In this document: positions 245 to 7,350 of the stretch, piece after piece | How positions within the stretch are numbered: the stretch's first letter is position 1 | Layout of the letters: the number at the start of each line of letters is the position of its first letter | Assembly: GCF_003334385.1 (NCBI RefSeq) | Contig: NZ_QOWN01000072.1 | Length of the DNA stretch: 7,350 bases | Strand: one strand, 5' to 3' | Origin: Escherichia coli | GTDB lineage: Bacteria > Pseudomonadota > Gammaproteobacteria > Enterobacterales > Enterobacteriaceae | Position numbers and translations under genes: made by a program | The notes under the pieces: model-generated | Told to the model about the DNA's origin: nothing | The model's input: only the letters and a program-made list of their open reading frames with translations | Database searches by the model: none

Positions 245-433
245 TTATCCAGCCGGTATTTCGTTATTCAGGTTCAGCGATACTTTTTTTAACGGGAGGC
301 ATTCACCGGGGATTTTTTGTTCGTCCCTTACCTGAATGCAGGATGACTTACTGTCATAAATTCCGGTAATCACATTTTGTGGCTCACCCGTTATAAGAAA
401 AACGGTCATCACCAGTGCAAATGCTGAAGTCAC
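245..433 (-). CDS. small hypothetical protein (62 aa), second gene of a leftward two-gene unit
   Basis: ORF track 245..433 (-). GTG start at 433..431 overlaps the upstream stop (GTGA), with GGAG 7 nt upstream. Alternative ATG start at 409 has no SD. No family recognised; position matches the small kilR/ydaE-type genes left of sieB in Rac-like prophages (inference only). Confidence 0.45.
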   Translation of the reverse strand: MTSAFALVMTVFLITGEPQNVITGIYDSKSSCIQVRDEQKIPGECLPLKKVSLNLNNEIPAG

Positions 434-618
434 TGCTGTTCTCCGATAATACCAAGTTCAAGAAGGGCAATTCTGGAAAGTATGGAATTATCATTGAGAA
501 GATAAGGTTCATATTTTCTCATCTTAATGGCATCTTCCGTAAACTCCCGGTTACTGAGCAGAACACCAATATCAAAACAACCTTCAGACGTATTAACGTT
601 TGGTAATAACGTTTCCAT
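430..618 (-). CDS. small hypothetical protein (62 aa)
   Basis: ORF track 430..618 (-). ATG at 618..616 preceded by GAGGA (plus 626-630 complement) at about 7 nt spacing. Amino-acid composition is more protein-like than the overlapping plus-strand ORFs 415..606 and 527..730. No family recognised. Confidence 0.5.
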   Translation of the reverse strand: METLLPNVNTSEGCFDIGVLLSNREFTEDAIKMRKYEPYLLNDNSILSRIALLELGIIGEQQ

Positions 619-795: not shown

Positions 796-1094
796 ACTTT
801 AAAAAGGGTGGCAGAGCAGTCACGGAGTAGAACTGATGCCACCAAATACTACACATGGGTATTGTGGCGGGGCTGTCACTTAAGCGTATGGTCAACCTGA
901 CGACCCGGTGCATTTTCTGGAGCAATGGAGGAAGCCCCAGCCATACTTACCGCCGCGCCATTTCGCGGACTGCCACAACCGGAAGTGCACGGTCGAAGAA
1001 ATTTAACGACAAGCCTTATATGCAAAGGAATCTCGCCGTGCGCTTTCGTGTTGTGTGCCTGCTTTTAACCACGTCAGGCGAGGTGGTTTCCGTC

Positions 1095-2292: not shown

Positions 2293-2583
2293 TTAACAGC
2301 TTTTGTTTGGATACTGCCTTCGTGAGTGAACTACATTTACGATCTCGATGTTAGATGCTGTTACTCGGTAAAGTATTATGTAGTTAGGATGGGTCACTAT
2401 CTCACGAAGGCCTAGAGCTCTTTCGCTTGGTGGATACAGGTAAGGGTGTTCAGTAAGTGACAAAACTGATGTTTCAATGCGTATTTTTAGTCTACGTGCA
2501 GCGGGAGGGTTTTCCTTGGCAATATAGGCTACGATCTGACGCAAATCATCACGCGCAGAAGGTAGCCATAAAATGGGCAGCAT
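2293..2583 (-). CDS. parE: type II toxin, RelE/ParE family (ParE-like), 96 aa
   Basis: ORF track 2293..2583 (-). Translation MLPILWLPSARDDLRQIVAYIAKENPPAARRLKIRIETSVLSLTEHPYLYPPSE...GLREIVTHPNYIILYRVTASNIEIVNVVHSRRQYP matches the ParE/RelE pattern from memory. Its ATG overlaps the antitoxin stop (TAATG). Resembles parE of the prophage paaR-paaA-parE systems; paralog number cannot be determined. Confidence 0.85.
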   Translation of the reverse strand: MLPILWLPSARDDLRQIVAYIAKENPPAARRLKIRIETSVLSLTEHPYLYPPSERALGLREIVTHPNYIILYRVTASNIEIVNVVHSRRQYPNKSC

Positions 2584-2774
2584 TACTCACTCCTGTTCGT
2601 CGAAGCTATTTGCGCAATAAGGTTTTCCATTTCAGCCATTACTTCGTCATGCGGAATTGCAGGACGGGGGTCTGCGAGGCTTGCTGCCACTTTGGTGCGT
2701 AACCATTCGTTATAGCTGTTTTCTTGTTCGATTGTTTCAAATTCTGAAATTATCGGGGAAAGGACTGTACTCAT
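2583..2774 (-). CDS. paaA: small antitoxin (63 aa), PaaA-like partner of the ParE toxin
   Basis: ORF track 2583..2774 (-). Lies immediately upstream of, and is translationally coupled to, the ParE-family toxin. GAGGAGG SD 7 nt before the ATG at 2774. Acidic 63-aa protein, the size I recall for PaaA2. Assignment rests on context and length, not a search. Confidence 0.7.
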   Translation of the reverse strand: MSTVLSPIISEFETIEQENSYNEWLRTKVAASLADPRPAIPHDEVMAEMENLIAQIASTNRSE

Positions 2775-4085: not shown

Positions 4086-4153
4086 CCAACAATATTTATA
4101 CCGGATTTCTTCCGGAAGTTCGTGGGTAAAGTTCGGTATCAGAAGAGGTGAGT

Positions 4154-5191
4154 ATGGCTAATGCCTGGCTCAGATTGTGGCATGACATGCCAAATGACCC
4201 CAAGTGGCGAACGATTGCCAGGGTATCAGGACAGCCAATCGCAACAGTGATGGCAGTGTATATCCACCTTCTGGTGAGCGCGTCACGAAATGTCACGACA
4301 TGTCACGGCGTGTCACTACGTGGTCACATTGATGTCACGACGGAAGATTTAGCAAGTGCGCTTGATGTGACGGAAGACGTAATTGATTCAATTTTGCATG
4401 CAATGCAGGGGCGGGTTCTGGATGGTGACCTTATTTCCGGATGGGAAAAACGTCAGGTGCTGAAAGAGGACAATGGTAACGTTTCGCAAACGGCAAAATC
4501 CCCGGCAGAGCGCAAGAGAGCGCAGCGGGAGCGCGAAAAGCTGCGGAAATATGATGCTGATTGTCACGATGAGTCACGACGTGTCACGCATCTGTCACGA
4601 CAAGTCACGACAGATAAAGATACAGATACAGAATTAAACCCCACACATAACGCGCGCATGCGCGAGAGTGCTCCAACCGGTGAGTCGCATGGTGCGCCGT
4701 TGCAGACAGCCGAACCTGAATACCTGGACGGCCTGAGCGAACCGATCGGGAAATTTTCGATGACTACTGTCTGGCAGCCGTCGTCGGATTTTCGACAACG
4801 GGCAGCAGTGTGGGGTATGGCTCTGCCTGAGCCGGAATTTACACCTGCTGAGCTTGCCGCATTCCGGGATTACTGGATGGCGGAGGGGAAGGTTTTCACG
4901 CAGGTTCAGTGGGAGCAGAAATTTGCCCGCCACGTGCAGCACGTCAGGGCACAGGTAAAACCAGTCAGCAAGGGGGTAAGCCATGCAGCATCAGGTGGCA
5001 CGGCATCACGGGCAGTTCAGGAAATCCGGGCAGCACGCGAACAGTGGGAACGTGACAACGGATTTATCAGCAACGGAAACGGCCTGGAAGCTGTGGGAGC
5101 TTATGGGGGAGGTGTATTCGAACCGCTGGACACAGAAGAACGGGGCCGCACCTTCGAAGCTCTGGATTGCCCAGATTGGCGCGATGACTGA
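4154..5191 (+). CDS. replication initiator, lambda-O-like: replisome-organizer N-terminal domain, internal iteron-encoding segments, C-terminal region resembling a DnaT-like domain (345 aa)
   Basis: ORF track 4148..5191; preferred start is ATG 4154 with GAGGTG SD at 4145-4150. N-terminus WLRLWHDMPNDPKWRTIA is typical of phage replisome organizers. C-terminal TVWQPSSDFRQRAAVWGMALPEPEFTPAELAAFRDYWMAEG looks DnaT-like (from memory). Two iteron arrays lie inside the gene. Confidence 0.85.
   Translation: MANAWLRLWHDMPNDPKWRTIARVSGQPIATVMAVYIHLLVSASRNVTTCHGVSLRGHIDVTTEDLASALDVTEDVIDSILHAMQGRVLDGDLISGWEKRQVLKEDNGNVSQTAKSPAERKRAQREREKLRKYDADCHDESRRVTHLSRQVTTDKDTDTELNPTHNARMRESAPTGESHGAPLQTAEPEYLDGLSEPIGKFSMTTVWQPSSDFRQRAAVWGMALPEPEFTPAELAAFRDYWMAEGKVFTQVQWEQKFARHVQHVRAQVKPVSKGVSHAASGGTASRAVQEIRAAREQWERDNGFISNGNGLEAVGAYGGGVFEPLDTEERGRTFEALDCPDWRDD
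4281..4342 (+). repeat. iteron array 1: six direct repeats of a TGTCACGAC-like unit at 10-11 bp spacing
   Basis: GTCAC cores at 4282, 4292, 4302, 4312, 4323 and 4334. A degenerate GTGAC copy follows at 4367-4371. The array encodes SRNVTTCHGVSLRGHIDVTT within the initiator. Confidence 0.6.
4561..4640 (+). repeat. iteron array 2 (five TGTCACGAC-like repeats) with adjacent A/T-rich GATACA repeats; candidate origin core
   Basis: GTCAC cores at 4563, 4573, 4583, 4594 and 4604, followed by gataaagatacagatacagaattaaacc (4613-4640). Layout parallels lambda ori (iterons plus an A/T-rich region inside the O gene). Confidence 0.6.
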
Positions 5192-5645
5192 ACAGCAAAT
5201 CCGGCTGGTCTGCCGTCAGTGCATGGACCGCTGCCGGGCGGGTGAAACGTGGCCCCCAGACCTGGCTGAGTTTGTTGCACTGATTTCGGAGAGTGGGGCA
5301 AATCCATTTGGTCTTACGGTGGATGCAGTGATGGAAGAGTACCGGCGCTGGCGCAATGAATCCTGGCGATACGACGGGAGTGATAAATACCCGTGGCCAC
5401 AGCCTGTGCTGTACCACATCTGCCTCGAAATGCGTACCAGAGGGATTGAGCGCCAGATGACGCAGGGTGAGTTAAAACGACTTGCGGAACGGCAACTGAC
5501 GAAATGGGCAAAGCATGTTGGTAACGGGATGAGTGTTCCGCCAGTGCGACGACAACTGGAAGGGGCGAAACACCCGCAAGGGCCAACGCCAATTGAACGG
5601 CTGAAACAGGAATACGAACGCCGGAAGGCAGCTGGTTTTATTTGA
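4983..5645 (+). CDS. replication protein, lambda-P-like helicase loader (220 aa as drawn; start uncertain)
   Basis: ORF track 4983..5645. Segments WPPDLAEFVALISE, KYPWPQPVLYHI, ELKRLAERQL and SVPPVRRQLE align with lambda P as I remember it. ATG 4983 has the best SD (AGGGGG, 6 nt) but overlaps the O-like gene by 209 nt. Alternative starts are ATG 5103 (weak SD) and ATG 5184 (ATGACTGA overlap with the O stop). Confidence 0.75.
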   Translation: MQHQVARHHGQFRKSGQHANSGNVTTDLSATETAWKLWELMGEVYSNRWTQKNGAAPSKLWIAQIGAMTEQQIRLVCRQCMDRCRAGETWPPDLAEFVALISESGANPFGLTVDAVMEEYRRWRNESWRYDGSDKYPWPQPVLYHICLEMRTRGIERQMTQGELKRLAERQLTKWAKHVGNGMSVPPVRRQLEGAKHPQGPTPIERLKQEYERRKAAGFI

Positions 5646-5678
5646 GTCTGAGAAACGATTTTGTCGGAGGAAATTTTA

Positions 5679-6395
5679 ATGGAAACCGTATTTGACGCAC
5701 TGAAAGCACTGAAAAGAGCCTCTTCACAGGTAGTGGCGGCCCGCCTTGGAATCAGCCGTGAAGATGCGGTCAACGAACTGTGGAAACTGAAGCGCCGCGG
5801 TGAAGCGGATAACAAGGGTTCGATGTGGTGGCTGATTCAGGCTGGTGAAAGTGAACCGGTGTCACCGGTACCGAAAGTGACAGCGCAAATGCTGACTGAG
5901 GCGATTGAACAACATGGCCCACAAACGGCGGATGAGCTGGCACTGATGTTCGGGATTACCTCCCGCCGGGCGAATTCATCGCTGGCCATGGCAATCAGCA
6001 AAGGGCGTCTGATTCGCGTGAATCAGGGTGGTAAATTTCGTTACTGCATACCGGGCGCTGATTTACCGGCAGAGCCGGAAGCTGCATCCGTAGCGGAAAC
6101 CGATGGTAAAGCCTTTCCTCAGCCAGCAGGTGTTGCGTTACCAGTACAGGAAATGATGGCACAGGAAGAAATGAAAACAGAAATCGTGGAAGACATTGTG
6201 AGGTTACAGCCATCGATCACCGAAATGAAAGCAGATGACCTGATTCTACCATCGCTGCATGTGGCTAACCGCGAGCTGCGCCGGGCGAAAAGTGATGTCC
6301 AGAAGTGGGAGCGAGTCTGTGCTGCGCTGCGGGAACTGAACAAACACAGGGATATTCTCCGGGATATTACCGCCACCAGAGAGCAGCAGCGGTGA
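5679..6395 (+). CDS. hypothetical protein with two tandem winged-helix-like segments (238 aa); possibly DUF1627-type prophage protein
   Basis: ORF track 5661..6395; preferred start ATG 5679 with GGAGG at 5666-5670 (8-nt spacing), since the track start is a TTG. Two repeats of a wHTH-like pattern (residues about 1-55 and 75-130) and a charged coiled C-terminus. DUF1627 assignment is from memory. Confidence 0.7.
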
Positions 6396-6709
6396 GTGGC
6401 TGGAAGAAGTGGCGCTGGGCTGAAATCCTGATACTCCGGCAGTGTGCGGGAACGATGAGAGTCGAAAGCATCGGTTATCTGATTGGTCGTAGTGAGTCAG
6501 CCGTCAGGACGAAAGCGCGGGAACTGGGTATCAGCATGATTTTACGGGGTGATTTTCACCCGTCGGCAAAATATTCACAGCGTGATATTGAGCTGGCGCG
6601 GCAACTGCATCAGCGTGGCGTACCCCGACGGGAAATTGCCGAAAAGTTTGGGATGAAGTTGGGCGCAGTGAATAACTACGTTTATTTCGACAGGAGGGTT
6701 CAGGAGTGA
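6392..6709 (+). CDS. small putative HTH DNA-binding protein (about 105 aa; start uncertain)
   Basis: Part of ORF track 6305..6709. GTG 6392 overlaps the upstream stop (GTGA); ATG 6455 is the alternative. HTH-like segments [21 protein letters not shown] and [20 protein letters not shown]. No family recognised. Confidence 0.55.
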
Positions 6710-7008
6710 GGGTGAGGATTTATATCGCCGGTCCGATGACGGGATATGAAAATTTCAACCGCGAGGCGTTTCACAGGGCGGAAGATGCGCTGAAACGGGA
6801 AGGGCATACCGTTTTAAACCCGGCAGTACTTCCGGACGGGCTGACTCAACCACACTACATGGATATTTGCATGGCAATGCTCCGTTGCGTGGATGCGGTT
6901 TACATGCTGAAAGGCTGGCAGCAGTCGGCAGGTGCAAGGGCTGAGCTGGCACTGGCGGAGAAACTGGGCCATGCGGTGATTTTTCAGGAGGTGGGCAGTG
7001 AATATTGA
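6706..7008 (+). CDS. DUF4406-like protein (nucleoside 2-deoxyribosyltransferase-like fold family), 100 aa
   Basis: ORF track 6706..7008. N-terminal RIYIAGPMTG motif typical of DUF4406 prophage proteins (from memory). GTG start overlaps the upstream stop (GTGA); GGAGGG 7 nt upstream. Confidence 0.75.
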   Translation: MRVRIYIAGPMTGYENFNREAFHRAEDALKREGHTVLNPAVLPDGLTQPHYMDICMAMLRCVDAVYMLKGWQQSAGARAELALAEKLGHAVIFQEVGSEY

Positions 7009-7216
7009 CCCGGCGATAACGATTGATATGGCCCTGAACACCGGCCTAGCACTTCTTGGTTATCTCTACATCATGTTCTGCAGCGGACGATGGCTGTCAC
7101 TGTTGTTCAAAAATGGAATAAACGCCGTAAGCAGGAGCAACGCCAGAAGGCAATGGATGCATTTTTCGAAGCCTTCGGGATTGACAGCATGGAACCAGGG
7201 GATCCAGCTCGCGTAA
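6998..7216 (+). CDS. small putative membrane protein (72 aa); reading frame uncertain after the TM segment
   Basis: ORF track 6998..7216. GTG start with AGGAGG SD (6986-6991) at 6-nt spacing. N-terminal hydrophobic helix ITIDMALNTGLALLGYLYIMF. A second small ORF in another frame (ATG 7090 to stop 7246-7248, MAVTVVQKWNKRRKQEQRQKAMDAFFEAFGIDSMEPGDPARVISRGDVVILV) overlaps it. Confidence 0.35.
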   Translation: MNIDPAITIDMALNTGLALLGYLYIMFCSGRWLSLLFKNGINAVSRSNARRQWMHFSKPSGLTAWNQGIQLA

Positions 7217-7264
7217 TTAGCAGAGGTGACGTTGTAATTCTTGTATAACGGAATGAAGAGAAAA

Positions 7265-7350
7265 ATGAGCGAGATTAACTATCAGGTACTGCGTGAAAAG
7301 GCAGAGAAAGCAACTAAAGGAAGCTACATCGTAGGGCATACATCTGTTAA
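7265..7350 (+). CDS. hypothetical protein, 5' end only (continues past the window)
   Basis: ATG at 7265 with purine-rich GAAGAGA upstream. Translation MSEINYQVLREKAEKATKGSYIVGHTSV stays open to the window edge. Confidence 0.4.
   Translation, partial: MSEINYQVLREKAEKATKGSYIVGHTSV

Follow-up and report, generated by a model that had tools for sequence, protein, structure and literature searches.

Three small genes and a pseudogene in the nin-equivalent region of an Escherichia coli prophage, including a putative nucleotide N-glycosidase of the DUF4406 family

Related phage regions and the position of the locus

The nin region of phage lambda, together with ren, contains small, dense genes with stop-start overlaps; these genes look dispensable and they are highly mosaic. 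The locus analyzed here resembles the lambda region in all of these properties. It is part of a window of 7,350 nucleotides (the whole stretch of DNA that was analyzed, from E. coli contig NZ_QOWN01000072.1) and it has the same position and strand as its lambda counterpart, after the gene of a P-like helicase loader and before RusA/antiterminator genes. In contrast to the lambda region, none of its four genes, g1 to g4, is homologous to ninA-ninI. The g1 protein is also more than twice the size of lambda Ren, which it exceeds by a winged helix and a C-terminal helix.

A second described system, Rac-SA53, carries the same module family, with ydaU/ydaV (replication), ydaW (DUF1627), lygF, rac19 (DUF4406) and ead. 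Its rac19 product is 89% identical to that of g3. The gene lygF occupies a slot that is held by Ren-like genes in sister prophages; in the window this slot contains g2, which encodes a protein with two helix-turn-helix (HTH) motifs. Unlike g1, ydaW from the Rac prophage of E. coli K-12 lacks the C-terminal half, and the genes that follow it are deleted. The fourth gene has its relative in the Stx phage VT2-Sakai, where orf78 is 91% identical to g4 in DNA and has the same ead/Ea22-like gene after it. In the Stx phages, however, the orf78-ead pair belongs to the leftward (exo-xis) operon, and the gene upstream of it is a different one. VT2-Sakai and the window are homologous from the ribosome-binding site of g4 onwards, and the copy in the window is frameshifted.

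The genes g1 to g4 are situated between O/P-like replication genes and the RusA/antiterminator region, i.e., in the nin-equivalent segment. This confirms the preliminary description of the locus, which had placed them in the position that lambda uses for its nin-region genes. The locus likely belongs to a Rac/Qin-type lambdoid prophage of E. coli, in which it would be the beginning of the delayed-early accessory region that is equivalent to nin. We likewise consider it likely that its three intact small genes and one broken gene form a mosaic accessory ("nin-like") region of the ordinary, catalogued kind, which is composed of separable cassettes and is not an obligate machine. The region is already known; its families are catalogued, and they are annotated in RefSeq with the same names. 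The whole stretch is found in RefSeq genomes with up to 100% identity, and close copies with the same family names are present in hundreds of them. An E. coli prophage in NZ_AP045172 is 99.9% identical to the window, and the RefSeq/PGAP annotation has the same three coding sequences g1, g2 and g3.

No promoter-like site was found in positions 5400-7350, and terminator-like sites occurred there without excess (3 found versus 1.9 expected). The stretch would form one transcription unit; transcripts initiated at the rightward early promoter would cross the cro-like, YdaT/CII-like, O-like and P-like genes before they reach g1 to g4. An RNA element within the stretch was dropped as a candidate; the sole Rfam match was DicF, which is located far upstream.

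The earlier statement that none of the genes has an assigned function also holds. The families are DUF1627, 'hypothetical/DNA-binding protein', DUF4406 and DUF4752, and a literature search for DUF4406, PF14359 and DUF1627 returned a handful of incidental mentions, none of them of function. No protein of the stretch scored above the NCBIfam cut-off, and none of the four proteins matched a PADLOC defence-system model at E ≤ 0.001.

The genes and their overlaps

The features of the locus, all on the + strand, are the following:

5679-6395, +: g1, DUF1627/YdaW family, 238 aa, with an ATG start and GGAGG 8 nt upstream
Domains of g1: winged helices at about residues 1-52 and 68-123; acidic/Pro-rich disordered linker at 131-187; long C-terminal helix at 181-237
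6392-6709, +: g2, 105 aa, two HTH motifs, with a GTG start within the GTGA overlap with the g1 stop
6706-7008, +: g3, DUF4406, 100 aa, with a GTG start in the GTGA overlap with the g2 stop and AGGAGG 8 nt upstream
Putative catalytic residues of g3: Y6, D63 and E80; residue at the phosphate position: S74
6998-7216, +: 5' part of g4, with a GTG start, the DUF4752 N-terminal frame, a hydrophobic segment and then a frameshifted tail
7090-7248, +: 3' part of g4, the DUF4752 C-terminal frame, a 52-aa open reading frame
7108-7110, +: 4-bp deletion (ATGA/TGAA) in g4, from the alignment with the intact orf78 of VT2-Sakai

The g1 protein matches Pfam DUF1627 (PF07789) over the complete model (1-155 of 155, aligned to residues 76-230; E 8.9e-82), and RefSeq likewise uses the name DUF1627. 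The YdaW protein of K-12 aligns to residues 1-139 with 58% identity, which corresponds to the two-winged-helix part of g1. The structure model and a fold search both show two winged helices, as anticipated in the initial reading of g1 as a tandem winged-helix protein. The matches in the fold search were generic winged-helix proteins and provided no functional lead; a comparison of the g1 sequence with PDB chains gave no informative match. The second winged helix is weakly Ren-like, in that the Ren-like profile phrog_142 matches residues 71-120 only (E 6.4e-5) and not the full length. The C-terminal helix probably mediates oligomerisation.

The g2 protein matches phrog_323 ('transcriptional regulator, D5-like') with E 2.3e-25. 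Pfam yields only weak HTH_7 and Sigma70_r4_2 matches for g2 itself, and its homologs carry precomputed HTH_23 and Sigma70_r4_2 assignments with the label 'DNA-binding protein'. The profile of the g2 family matches the 105-residue PDB chain 2lvs twice, and the better of the two matches is to the C-terminal half (E 7e-4). The GTG start of g2 is supported because the N-terminal 20 residues are invariant across 29 homologs and because the same start with its 4-nt overlap recurs behind a different upstream gene in one contig (L243). From these motifs we infer DNA binding for g1 as well as for g2.

The fourth gene is a pseudogene in the window; as judged from the alignment, this DUF4752 gene is inactivated by the 4-bp deletion. 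The intact orf78 of VT2-Sakai encodes 94 aa and matches Pfam DUF4752 (PF15944) with E 2e-39. Such a continuous reading frame is absent in g4, which consists of two frames around the deletion. The 5' frame matches positions 1-54 of phrog_667 (E 2.5e-13); the 3' frame matches positions 36-84 of the same profile (E 3.5e-20) and also phrog_29388 (E 2.2e-39). The frameshift is the reason why 7090-7248 can be read as a separate open reading frame. RefSeq annotates window positions 7028-7248 as a pseudogene, 'DUF4752 family protein, frameshifted'. The same deletion allele occurs in NZ_AP045172 and in 11 IMG/VR contigs. About 24 other contigs have an intact junction at this site; five of these and JE86-ST05 appear to have a separate 1-bp deletion further downstream. 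A programmed frameshift in g4 was rejected. The intact homologs are encoded in a single frame, the window has a plain 4-bp deletion, and the sister lineage has the other, 1-bp deletion. The hydrophobic segment is only moderately hydrophobic (19-residue Kyte-Doolittle mean of 1.4), so that a transmembrane (TM) protein is no more than plausible as the product of the DUF4752 gene.

The preliminary description had listed four consecutive genes that are linked by GTGA or near overlaps and had concluded from the overlaps that the genes share a function. For g1 to g3 the first part is correct. These genes lie on the + strand with exactly the coordinates given and in agreement with PGAP, and 4-nt GTGA overlaps are present between g1 and g2 (6392-6395) and between g2 and g3 (6706-6709). 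It fails for the fourth gene, which is broken into two frames. The overlap between g3 and g4 is 11 nt long (GTG at 6998, TGA at 7006-7008) and leads into the pseudogene; the small TM protein of the preliminary description does not correspond to one open reading frame from 6998 to 7248, since the frame from 6998 stops at 7216 and the stop at 7248 is in another frame. The conclusion on function is not supported either. Of the 79 pairs of neighbouring genes in seven related phage early operons, 25 have a 4-nt overlap and 9 a 1-nt overlap. Stop-start overlaps are hence generic, because 34 of 79 neighbouring pairs have them, and they carry no implication of a shared function because identical overlaps join unrelated neighbours throughout such operons. 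They may be understood as the usual compact packing, which would let ribosomes reinitiate at weak starts such as the GTG of g2. Translation of g1, g2 and g3 is probably coupled.

The DUF4406 protein

The best functional prediction in the locus concerns g3. Its product matches Pfam DUF4406 (PF14359) over positions 2-91 of 91 with E 2.6e-36. The match to PF05014 (nucleoside 2-deoxyribosyltransferase, NDT) is not significant (E 0.055, score 14.1), and a comparison of the g3 sequence with PDB chains resulted in noise or in the DUF1937 chain 1t1j (PA1492) only. The latter provides no functional information on g3 because DUF1937 is itself uncharacterised and the identity is 19%. The DUF4406 profile, on the other hand, reaches the NDT of T. 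brucei with E 5.5e-5. The structure model of g3 is confident (pLDDT 94.4) and has NDT, MilB and DNPH1 as its top structural matches, which places the protein in the NDT superfamily at the level of the fold. Its flavodoxin-like parallel beta/alpha fold can be superposed on NDT, Rcl and MilB.

The catalytic role of the Tyr, Asp and Glu residues in this superfamily is established from the enzymology of NDT and DNPH1. NMP N-glycosidases convert a (d)NMP into the base and (deoxy)ribose 5-phosphate, and they act as dimers with a shared active site; a Ser six residues before the catalytic Glu binds the 5'-phosphate in DNPH1/Rcl, MilB and BcmB. The C-terminal segment of NDT and DNPH1 completes the active site of the neighbouring subunit. 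In the alignment, the T. brucei NDT (chain 2a0k) has the same residues as g3 at the positions of Y6, D63, G76 and E80, so that the Glu nucleophile and the positioning Tyr and Asp of the superfamily all have a counterpart in g3. The CMP N-glycosidase BcmB (chain 4jen) shares S74, G76 and E80 with g3. The position of S74 is an Asp in NDT and a Ser in BcmB; six residues before its putative catalytic Glu, g3 thus has the Ser of the NMP N-glycosidases and not the Asp of NDT. Among 87 DUF4406 representatives, S74 is conserved in all 87 and E80 in 85; the position of Y6 is Y or F in 85, and that of D63 is D, E or N in 77. The fold matches, the aligned catalytic residues and the profile match to the T. 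brucei enzyme bear out the resemblance to NDTs that had been suggested for DUF4406.

These comparisons and the structure model support only one biochemical prediction for the locus, namely that DUF4406 is a putative (deoxy)nucleoside-monophosphate N-glycosidase. The protein may be regarded as a stripped-down member of the NDT superfamily that, like DNPH1, MilB and BcmB, would split (deoxy)nucleoside 5'-monophosphates at the N-glycosidic bond via a covalent glutamyl intermediate. With this putative activity it would therefore act on the nucleotide pool during replication of the phage DNA. There are also differences to the known enzymes. The g3 protein has 100 aa, compared with about 125-165 in DNPH1/Rcl, MilB, BcmB and the NDTs, and it is without their C-terminal element that completes the active site of the partner; its substrate could therefore be another one, including a nucleotide in a polymer. 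It also has invariant motifs of its own (N18, F22, NPAxLPxGL, Y51 and GW).

The DUF4406 family comprises 12,366 clusters at 50% identity, and its members occur in 625 phage genomes including actinophages, vibriophages and roseophages. Their labels in phage records are inconsistent (unknown, deoxyribosyltransferase, hydrolase, MazG-like, dCMP deaminase). Fusions of DUF4406 to a 'MazG-like pyrophosphatase' or a 'deoxycytidylate deaminase' were rejected since the proteins with these labels are single-domain proteins of about 125 aa. When 30 long DUF4406 proteins were screened for domain fusions, one had an XRE-type HTH and the rest had no other domain.

Gene order across prophages and alternative explanations

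Among 5426 complete E. coli genomes, g1 is present in 1912, g2 in 770 and g3 in 1110. Contiguous g2 and g3 occur in 557 of these genomes, contiguous g1 to g3 in 507 and the whole stretch in 376. A similar picture emerges from 75 IMG/VR loci with a DUF4406 gene of ≥88% identity: 60 have g1-g2-g3 with identical junctions, 8 have g1 and a Ren-like gene (phrog_142, E 4e-41, full length) in the slot of g2, and 7 have neither. In the 76 IMG/VR loci with a g2 of ≥82% identity, g1 is upstream in all 76 and g3 is downstream in 63; 13 of the 76 have no DUF4406 gene within 3 kb. The gene g4 follows DUF4406 in 30 of 78 IMG/VR loci. In Salmonella the order DUF977, DUF4406, DUF4752 is found behind three different replication modules.

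The conserved order in close relatives could reflect a true functional module, in which the DNA-binding proteins g1 and g2 act as partners to recruit DUF4406 or to regulate it, for example for an action on DNA bases or a modification of DNA, and in which tight translational coupling sets the stoichiometry. The identical junctions of the trio and the constant position of g1 upstream of g2 favor this explanation. Furthermore, DUF4406 is always preceded by a winged-helix/HTH gene (g2 or a Ren-like/DUF977 gene) in pR-type lambdoid contexts, and the adjacency of g2 and DUF4406 is rebuilt in reversed order in phage D6 and in six IMG/VR contigs (L222, L229, L240 and L243-245), where DUF4406 is only 62% identical. 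We still consider a module of this kind unlikely. The trio stays together among close relatives only, and most contexts at 60-70% identity have lost the adjacency. At 60-67% identity most DUF4406 genes lack the partner genes and belong to early operons of the recT/xis/int type or to P2-like ones, and at 63-68% identity the homologs of g2 are mostly in exo/recT...xis-int operons, again without partners. Even in close relatives an unrelated Ren-like gene can replace g2 while g1 and g3 remain, DUF4406 can be missing next to g1-g2, and of the 1110 E. coli genomes that carry g3 only 557 have g2 next to it. The DUF4406 family is also spread far more widely than the enterobacterial g1 and g2, and the overlaps are generic. 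Co-occurrence across prophages, which had been proposed as a check, thus gives a mixed picture: the linkage is kept among close relatives, although g2 is sometimes swapped or g3 missing there, and it decays with divergence, while the adjacency of g2 and DUF4406 recurs in reversed order. Two distant DUF4406 proteins, each used singly to scan IMG/VR, had almost no matches. A less strict functional link of g2 with g3 is possible because g1 precedes g2 in all 76 loci and because of the reversed g2-DUF4406 adjacency. Together, these results are best explained by separable cassettes, and phages would shuffle the families of g1 to g4 largely independently.

A different explanation for g1 and g3 comes from work on retrons. 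An over-expression screen (bioRxiv 10.1101/2020.06.22.160242) named the ydaW gene of K-12 among the prophage genes that block RcaT, the toxin of retron-Sen2, and the effectors of type II-A retrons combine an NDT-like domain with a winged HTH (PMC7736814). Phage Dam or Dcm-like methyltransferases switch the NDT-type effectors on, and the effectors then deplete adenine nucleosides. DUF1627/YdaW and/or the mini-NDT DUF4406 might thus be an anti-defence pair that neutralises such effectors, with DUF4406 as a decoy subunit poisoning effector dimers or filaments or as an enzyme that repairs the nucleotide pool. In favor of this is the fact that the RcaT blocker ydaW corresponds to the two-winged-helix part of g1. 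In addition, several unrelated contexts have a DUF4406 homolog at most one gene away from a methyltransferase of the Dam, C5 or MT-A70 type; by analogy with the linked pair recE-racC this recurrent placement could be read as a pairing of trigger and blocker in counter-defence against type II-A retrons. We regard the anti-defence pair as very improbable, and the same applies to this interpretation of the methyltransferase placement.

The linkage to methyltransferases is striking in hand-picked contexts, but we regard it as an observation and not as a finding. In a broader sample of 57 DUF4406 context clusters, a candidate methyltransferase was within 250 bp in 7, two of which are weak 'DPPH' calls, and within 4 kb in 16. 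This adjacency in about 12% of the contexts stems from a small number of independent arrangements and is about what the local density of methyltransferase genes would give. No methyltransferase is adjacent to DUF4406 in the window, and in one contig (L001) the nearest is about 6 kb downstream. The contigs of three distant DUF4406 representatives showed no methyltransferase, two of these contigs being too short to be informative, and a search for literature linking NDT, prophage and methyltransferase found nothing relevant. DUF4406 itself gives no direct support to an anti-retron role: its nearest structural relatives are the enzymes NDT, DNPH1 and MilB, no retron effector is among the best structural matches listed, and its catalytic residues are conserved as in a working enzyme. 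The ydaW result, finally, was obtained by over-expression of a truncated gene and was reported in a preprint. If the anti-retron idea were true, it might add a widespread counter-defence family and might explain the presence of these genes beside phage methyltransferases.

The frameshifts in g4 raise the question whether the entire segment is non-catalytic or decaying cargo, i.e., neutral hitch-hikers of a defective prophage that, like g4, have no current function. Two independent frameshift alleles of g4 in closely related prophages and further pseudogenes downstream in the same prophage are compatible with such a decay. It is the least probable of the alternatives, however, because hundreds of genomes have intact copies of g1, g2 and g3; moreover, the invariant residues of g2 and those of DUF4406 (S74, E80, F22 and P43 across 87 clusters) indicate purifying selection.

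As it stands, the result matters little; in its behavior the segment does not differ from other mosaic accessory regions in lambdoid prophages. The residue pattern of DUF4406, with its invariant Ser-x-Gly-x-x-x-Glu, provides a hypothesis that is cheap to test, namely that the members of this family may be NMP/dNMP N-glycosidases.

Setting and junctions of the four-gene stretch

The window represents the early region of an E. coli prophage of lambdoid (Rac/Qin) type. ORF calls, PHROG matches and the way RefSeq annotates a near-identical prophage gave its gene order.

Features of the window; those from 5679 onward are PGAP calls in the E. coli JNEC-KY176 prophage
430-618, minus strand: dicB, adjoining DicF
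806-857, minus strand: DicF antisense RNA (Rfam RF00039, 62 bits, full length)
2293-2583 and 2583-2774, minus strand: toxin-antitoxin pair, RelE/ParE-family toxin with RelB (so annotated by RefSeq in the near-identical prophage NZ_AP045172)
minus strand: cI-like repressor
plus strand, in this order: cro-like gene, YdaT/CII-like gene, O-like/DnaT-like initiator, P-like helicase loader
5679-6395, plus strand: DUF1627 protein
6392-6709, plus strand: hypothetical protein
6706-7008, plus strand: DUF4406 protein
ending at 7248, plus strand: pseudogene 'DUF4752 family protein, frameshifted'
starting at 7265: ead/Ea22-like gene

DicF with the adjoining dicB indicates that the prophage has a Qin-type cell-division inhibition cassette. 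The toxin-antitoxin pair is an insertion that separates the dicB side from the cI-like repressor. On the plus strand, the O-like ORF (4148-5191) shares 209 nt, read in a different frame, with the P-like ORF in its long form (4983-5645); in RefSeq, P begins at 5184. One PHROG profile, phrog_15931 (482 positions), covers both ORFs, which may reflect fused or misannotated PHROG members or a frameshift relationship.

Positions 5600-7350 are 99.9% identical to the JNEC-KY176 prophage, in which the PGAP CDS calls coincide exactly with those of the window. The four-gene stretch begins directly 3' of the P-like gene, and farther downstream that prophage carries DUF551, hokD, DUF968, RusA and DUF1133 genes. 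The stretch therefore takes the place of the ren/nin region of lambda, the position that the preliminary description had given it. The prophage is a common one and this mosaic accessory region of it is already catalogued; none of it falls outside known kinds.

The first gene matches DUF1627 (E 9e-82), and its AlphaFold model confidently shows the proposed pair of winged-helix domains (residues 1-52 and 68-123), together with a 55-residue disordered linker and, at the C terminus, a helix almost 60 residues long. The second has no family in Pfam or NCBIfam; it matches phrog_323 (E 2e-25) and contains two HTH motifs, in line with its earlier description as a small HTH protein. It is still the case that none of the genes has a known function.

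The fourth gene is not a single ORF: the frame that opens at 6998 closes at 7216, and 7248 is the stop of a different frame. Alignment with the intact VT2-Sakai orf78 (94 aa, Pfam DUF4752, E 2e-39) places a 4-bp deletion at 7108-7110. Since 11 IMG/VR contigs carry the identical allele, it is inherited and not a sequencing error. A separate 1-bp deletion farther downstream is apparently present in close-relative prophages. Of the small transmembrane protein expected here, the hydrophobic segment is found, with only moderate hydrophobicity, but the intact reading frame is not.

GTGA stop-start overlaps join the first three genes, and the third junction is an 11-nt overlap. The proposed run of four overlapping genes thus reduces to three with two GTGA overlaps, followed by the frameshifted pseudogene. 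Shine-Dalgarno sequences are good for the first, third and fourth genes; that of the second is weak, which fits reinitiation once DUF1627 translation terminates. The upstream GTG start of the second gene is supported, because residues 1-20 are invariant in 29 homologs and a homolog with a GTG start and a 4-nt overlap also lies behind a different upstream gene. No promoter-like sites were found in the stretch, and terminator-like sites there show no excess over expectation. Among the 79 pairs of adjacent genes in seven related early operons, 25 have a 4-nt and 9 a 1-nt overlap, independently of the neighbours' identity; two GTGA junctions in three are therefore expected for such an operon, and these overlaps do not sustain the shared function that had been read from them.

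Co-occurrence and mosaicism

We counted DNA matches in 5426 complete E. coli genomes. Any match to the DUF1627 gene was present in 1912, the two-HTH gene in 770 and the DUF4406 gene in 1110; the latter two were contiguous in 557, all three in 507, and the whole stretch 5600-7350 occurred in 376. The three-gene order was kept in 60 of 75 IMG/VR loci with DUF4406 at ≥88% identity. In eight, a Ren-like gene (phrog_142, E 4e-41) occupied the second slot behind DUF1627, the layout of ydaW-lygF-rac19 in phage Rac-SA53, and seven had neither arrangement. The DUF4752 gene followed in 30 of 78 loci. Among 76 IMG/VR loci with the two-HTH gene at ≥82% identity, DUF1627 lay upstream in all, DUF4406 downstream in only 63.

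In Salmonella the order is DUF977 (Ren-like), DUF4406, DUF4752, behind three different replication modules. DUF4406 genes at 60-67% identity are located in recT...xis-int or P2-like early operons. Two-HTH genes at 63-68% identity occur in exo/recT...xis-int operons of Salmonella, Pantoea and Citrobacter, each time with the partner genes absent. A counter-example is the plasmid-prophage D6 with six IMG/VR contigs, where a long DUF4406 gene (62% identical) directly precedes a two-HTH homolog (75-78% identical), the reverse of the window order. These long versions have 203-212 aa and overlap the homolog by 4 nt (D6, L172, 2486-3411; L243 3953-4905; also L222, L229, L240, L244 and L245). In D6, ead/Ea22-like and DUF4752 genes also lie within 2.5 kb, so the same accessory gene set recurs in another phage type. 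Taken together, the first three genes are cassettes that can separate, though within one phage clade they often move as a group; the two-HTH and DUF4406 genes possibly have a weak affinity.

DUF1627 genes are also internally mosaic, with N-terminal winged helix, central part and C-terminal tail variously combined (window 5679-6395; compared loci L019 2159-2902 and L148 3243-4004). The tail variant was linked to the identity of the downstream gene (two-HTH or Ren-like) in both cases read, which places a recombination joint within the 3' end of DUF1627. K-12 ydaW (Rac, L275, 4753-5313) equals only the two winged-helix domains, with 58% identity to residues 1-139. Window 6985-7350 is homologous to Stx-phage exo-xis regions (VT2-Sakai, L003, 1418-1788), and this homology sets in where the DUF4752 gene has its ribosome-binding site and GTG start. 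This edge is a gene-boundary mosaic joint, by which a leftward-operon cassette moved into a rightward operon.

Fold, neighbours and predicted activity of DUF4406

DUF4406 comprises 12,366 clusters at 50% identity (E 1e-3 or better) and is found under inconsistent names in 625 sequenced phages, among them actinophages, vibriophages, phages of pseudomonads and N4-like roseophages. In the long versions of the family, no second domain was informative. The window protein (DUF4406, E 2.6e-36) reaches only E 0.055 against the PF05014 model and is not filed as a member. Its very confident structure model (pLDDT 94.4) best matches DUF1937 1t1j, MilB, several nucleoside 2-deoxyribosyltransferases (NDTs) and Rcl/DNPH1, then TIR domains, which upholds the suggested NDT resemblance.

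In a profile of 87 family representatives, Y6, D63, G76 and E80 align with identical residues of T. brucei NDT, and S74, G76 and E80 correspond to S, G and E of BcmB, a CMP N-glycosidase. Throughout DUF4406, S74 does not vary and E80 hardly does. Enzymes of this superfamily use the Glu as covalent nucleophile, held in position, like the sugar, by Tyr and Asp. Six residues ahead of the Glu, nucleoside-specific transferases have Asp and 5'-phosphate-binding hydrolases have Ser. Given this enzymology, the Ser/Glu/Tyr/Asp pattern predicts that DUF4406 is most likely an N-glycosidase of nucleoside monophosphates, working like DNPH1 or MilB. The small window protein lacks the C-terminal element of NDT superfamily enzymes, which leaves a range of possible substrates.

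An anti-defence role against NDT-type (type II-A) retrons is hinted at by the literature and by some gene contexts, but appears very unlikely. K-12 ydaW, the two-winged-helix part of DUF1627, is named in a preprint among the prophage genes whose over-expression blocks RcaT, the NDT-like toxin of retron-Sen2 (bioRxiv 10.1101/2020.06.22.160242). RcaT-type effectors fuse NDT-like domains to a winged helix (PMC7736814). Their triggers are phage Dam or Dcm-like methylases, and their effect is a depletion of adenine nucleosides. Several divergent DUF4406 genes lie at most one gene from a Dam, C5 or MT-A70 methyltransferase, as this role would favour. However, the closest structural relatives of DUF4406 are ordinary enzymes, and no retron effector is among the best structural matches listed. 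In 80 diverse DUF4406 loci forming 57 context clusters, a candidate methyltransferase lay within 4 kb in 16 clusters and within 250 bp in 7. These clusters represent few independent arrangements, and their rate is near that expected from the local density of methyltransferase genes; the adjacency is suggestive without clearly exceeding that density. The types near DUF4406 comprise a C5+Dam fusion, D12, C5, MT-A70 and Dam (compared loci L155-L157, L158-L160, L161-L162, L177 and L175; IMG/VR L238, L252, L254, L268 and L270).

In practical terms, the analysis yields a specific prediction for DUF4406 that can be put to the test, an N-glycosidase activity on nucleoside monophosphates.
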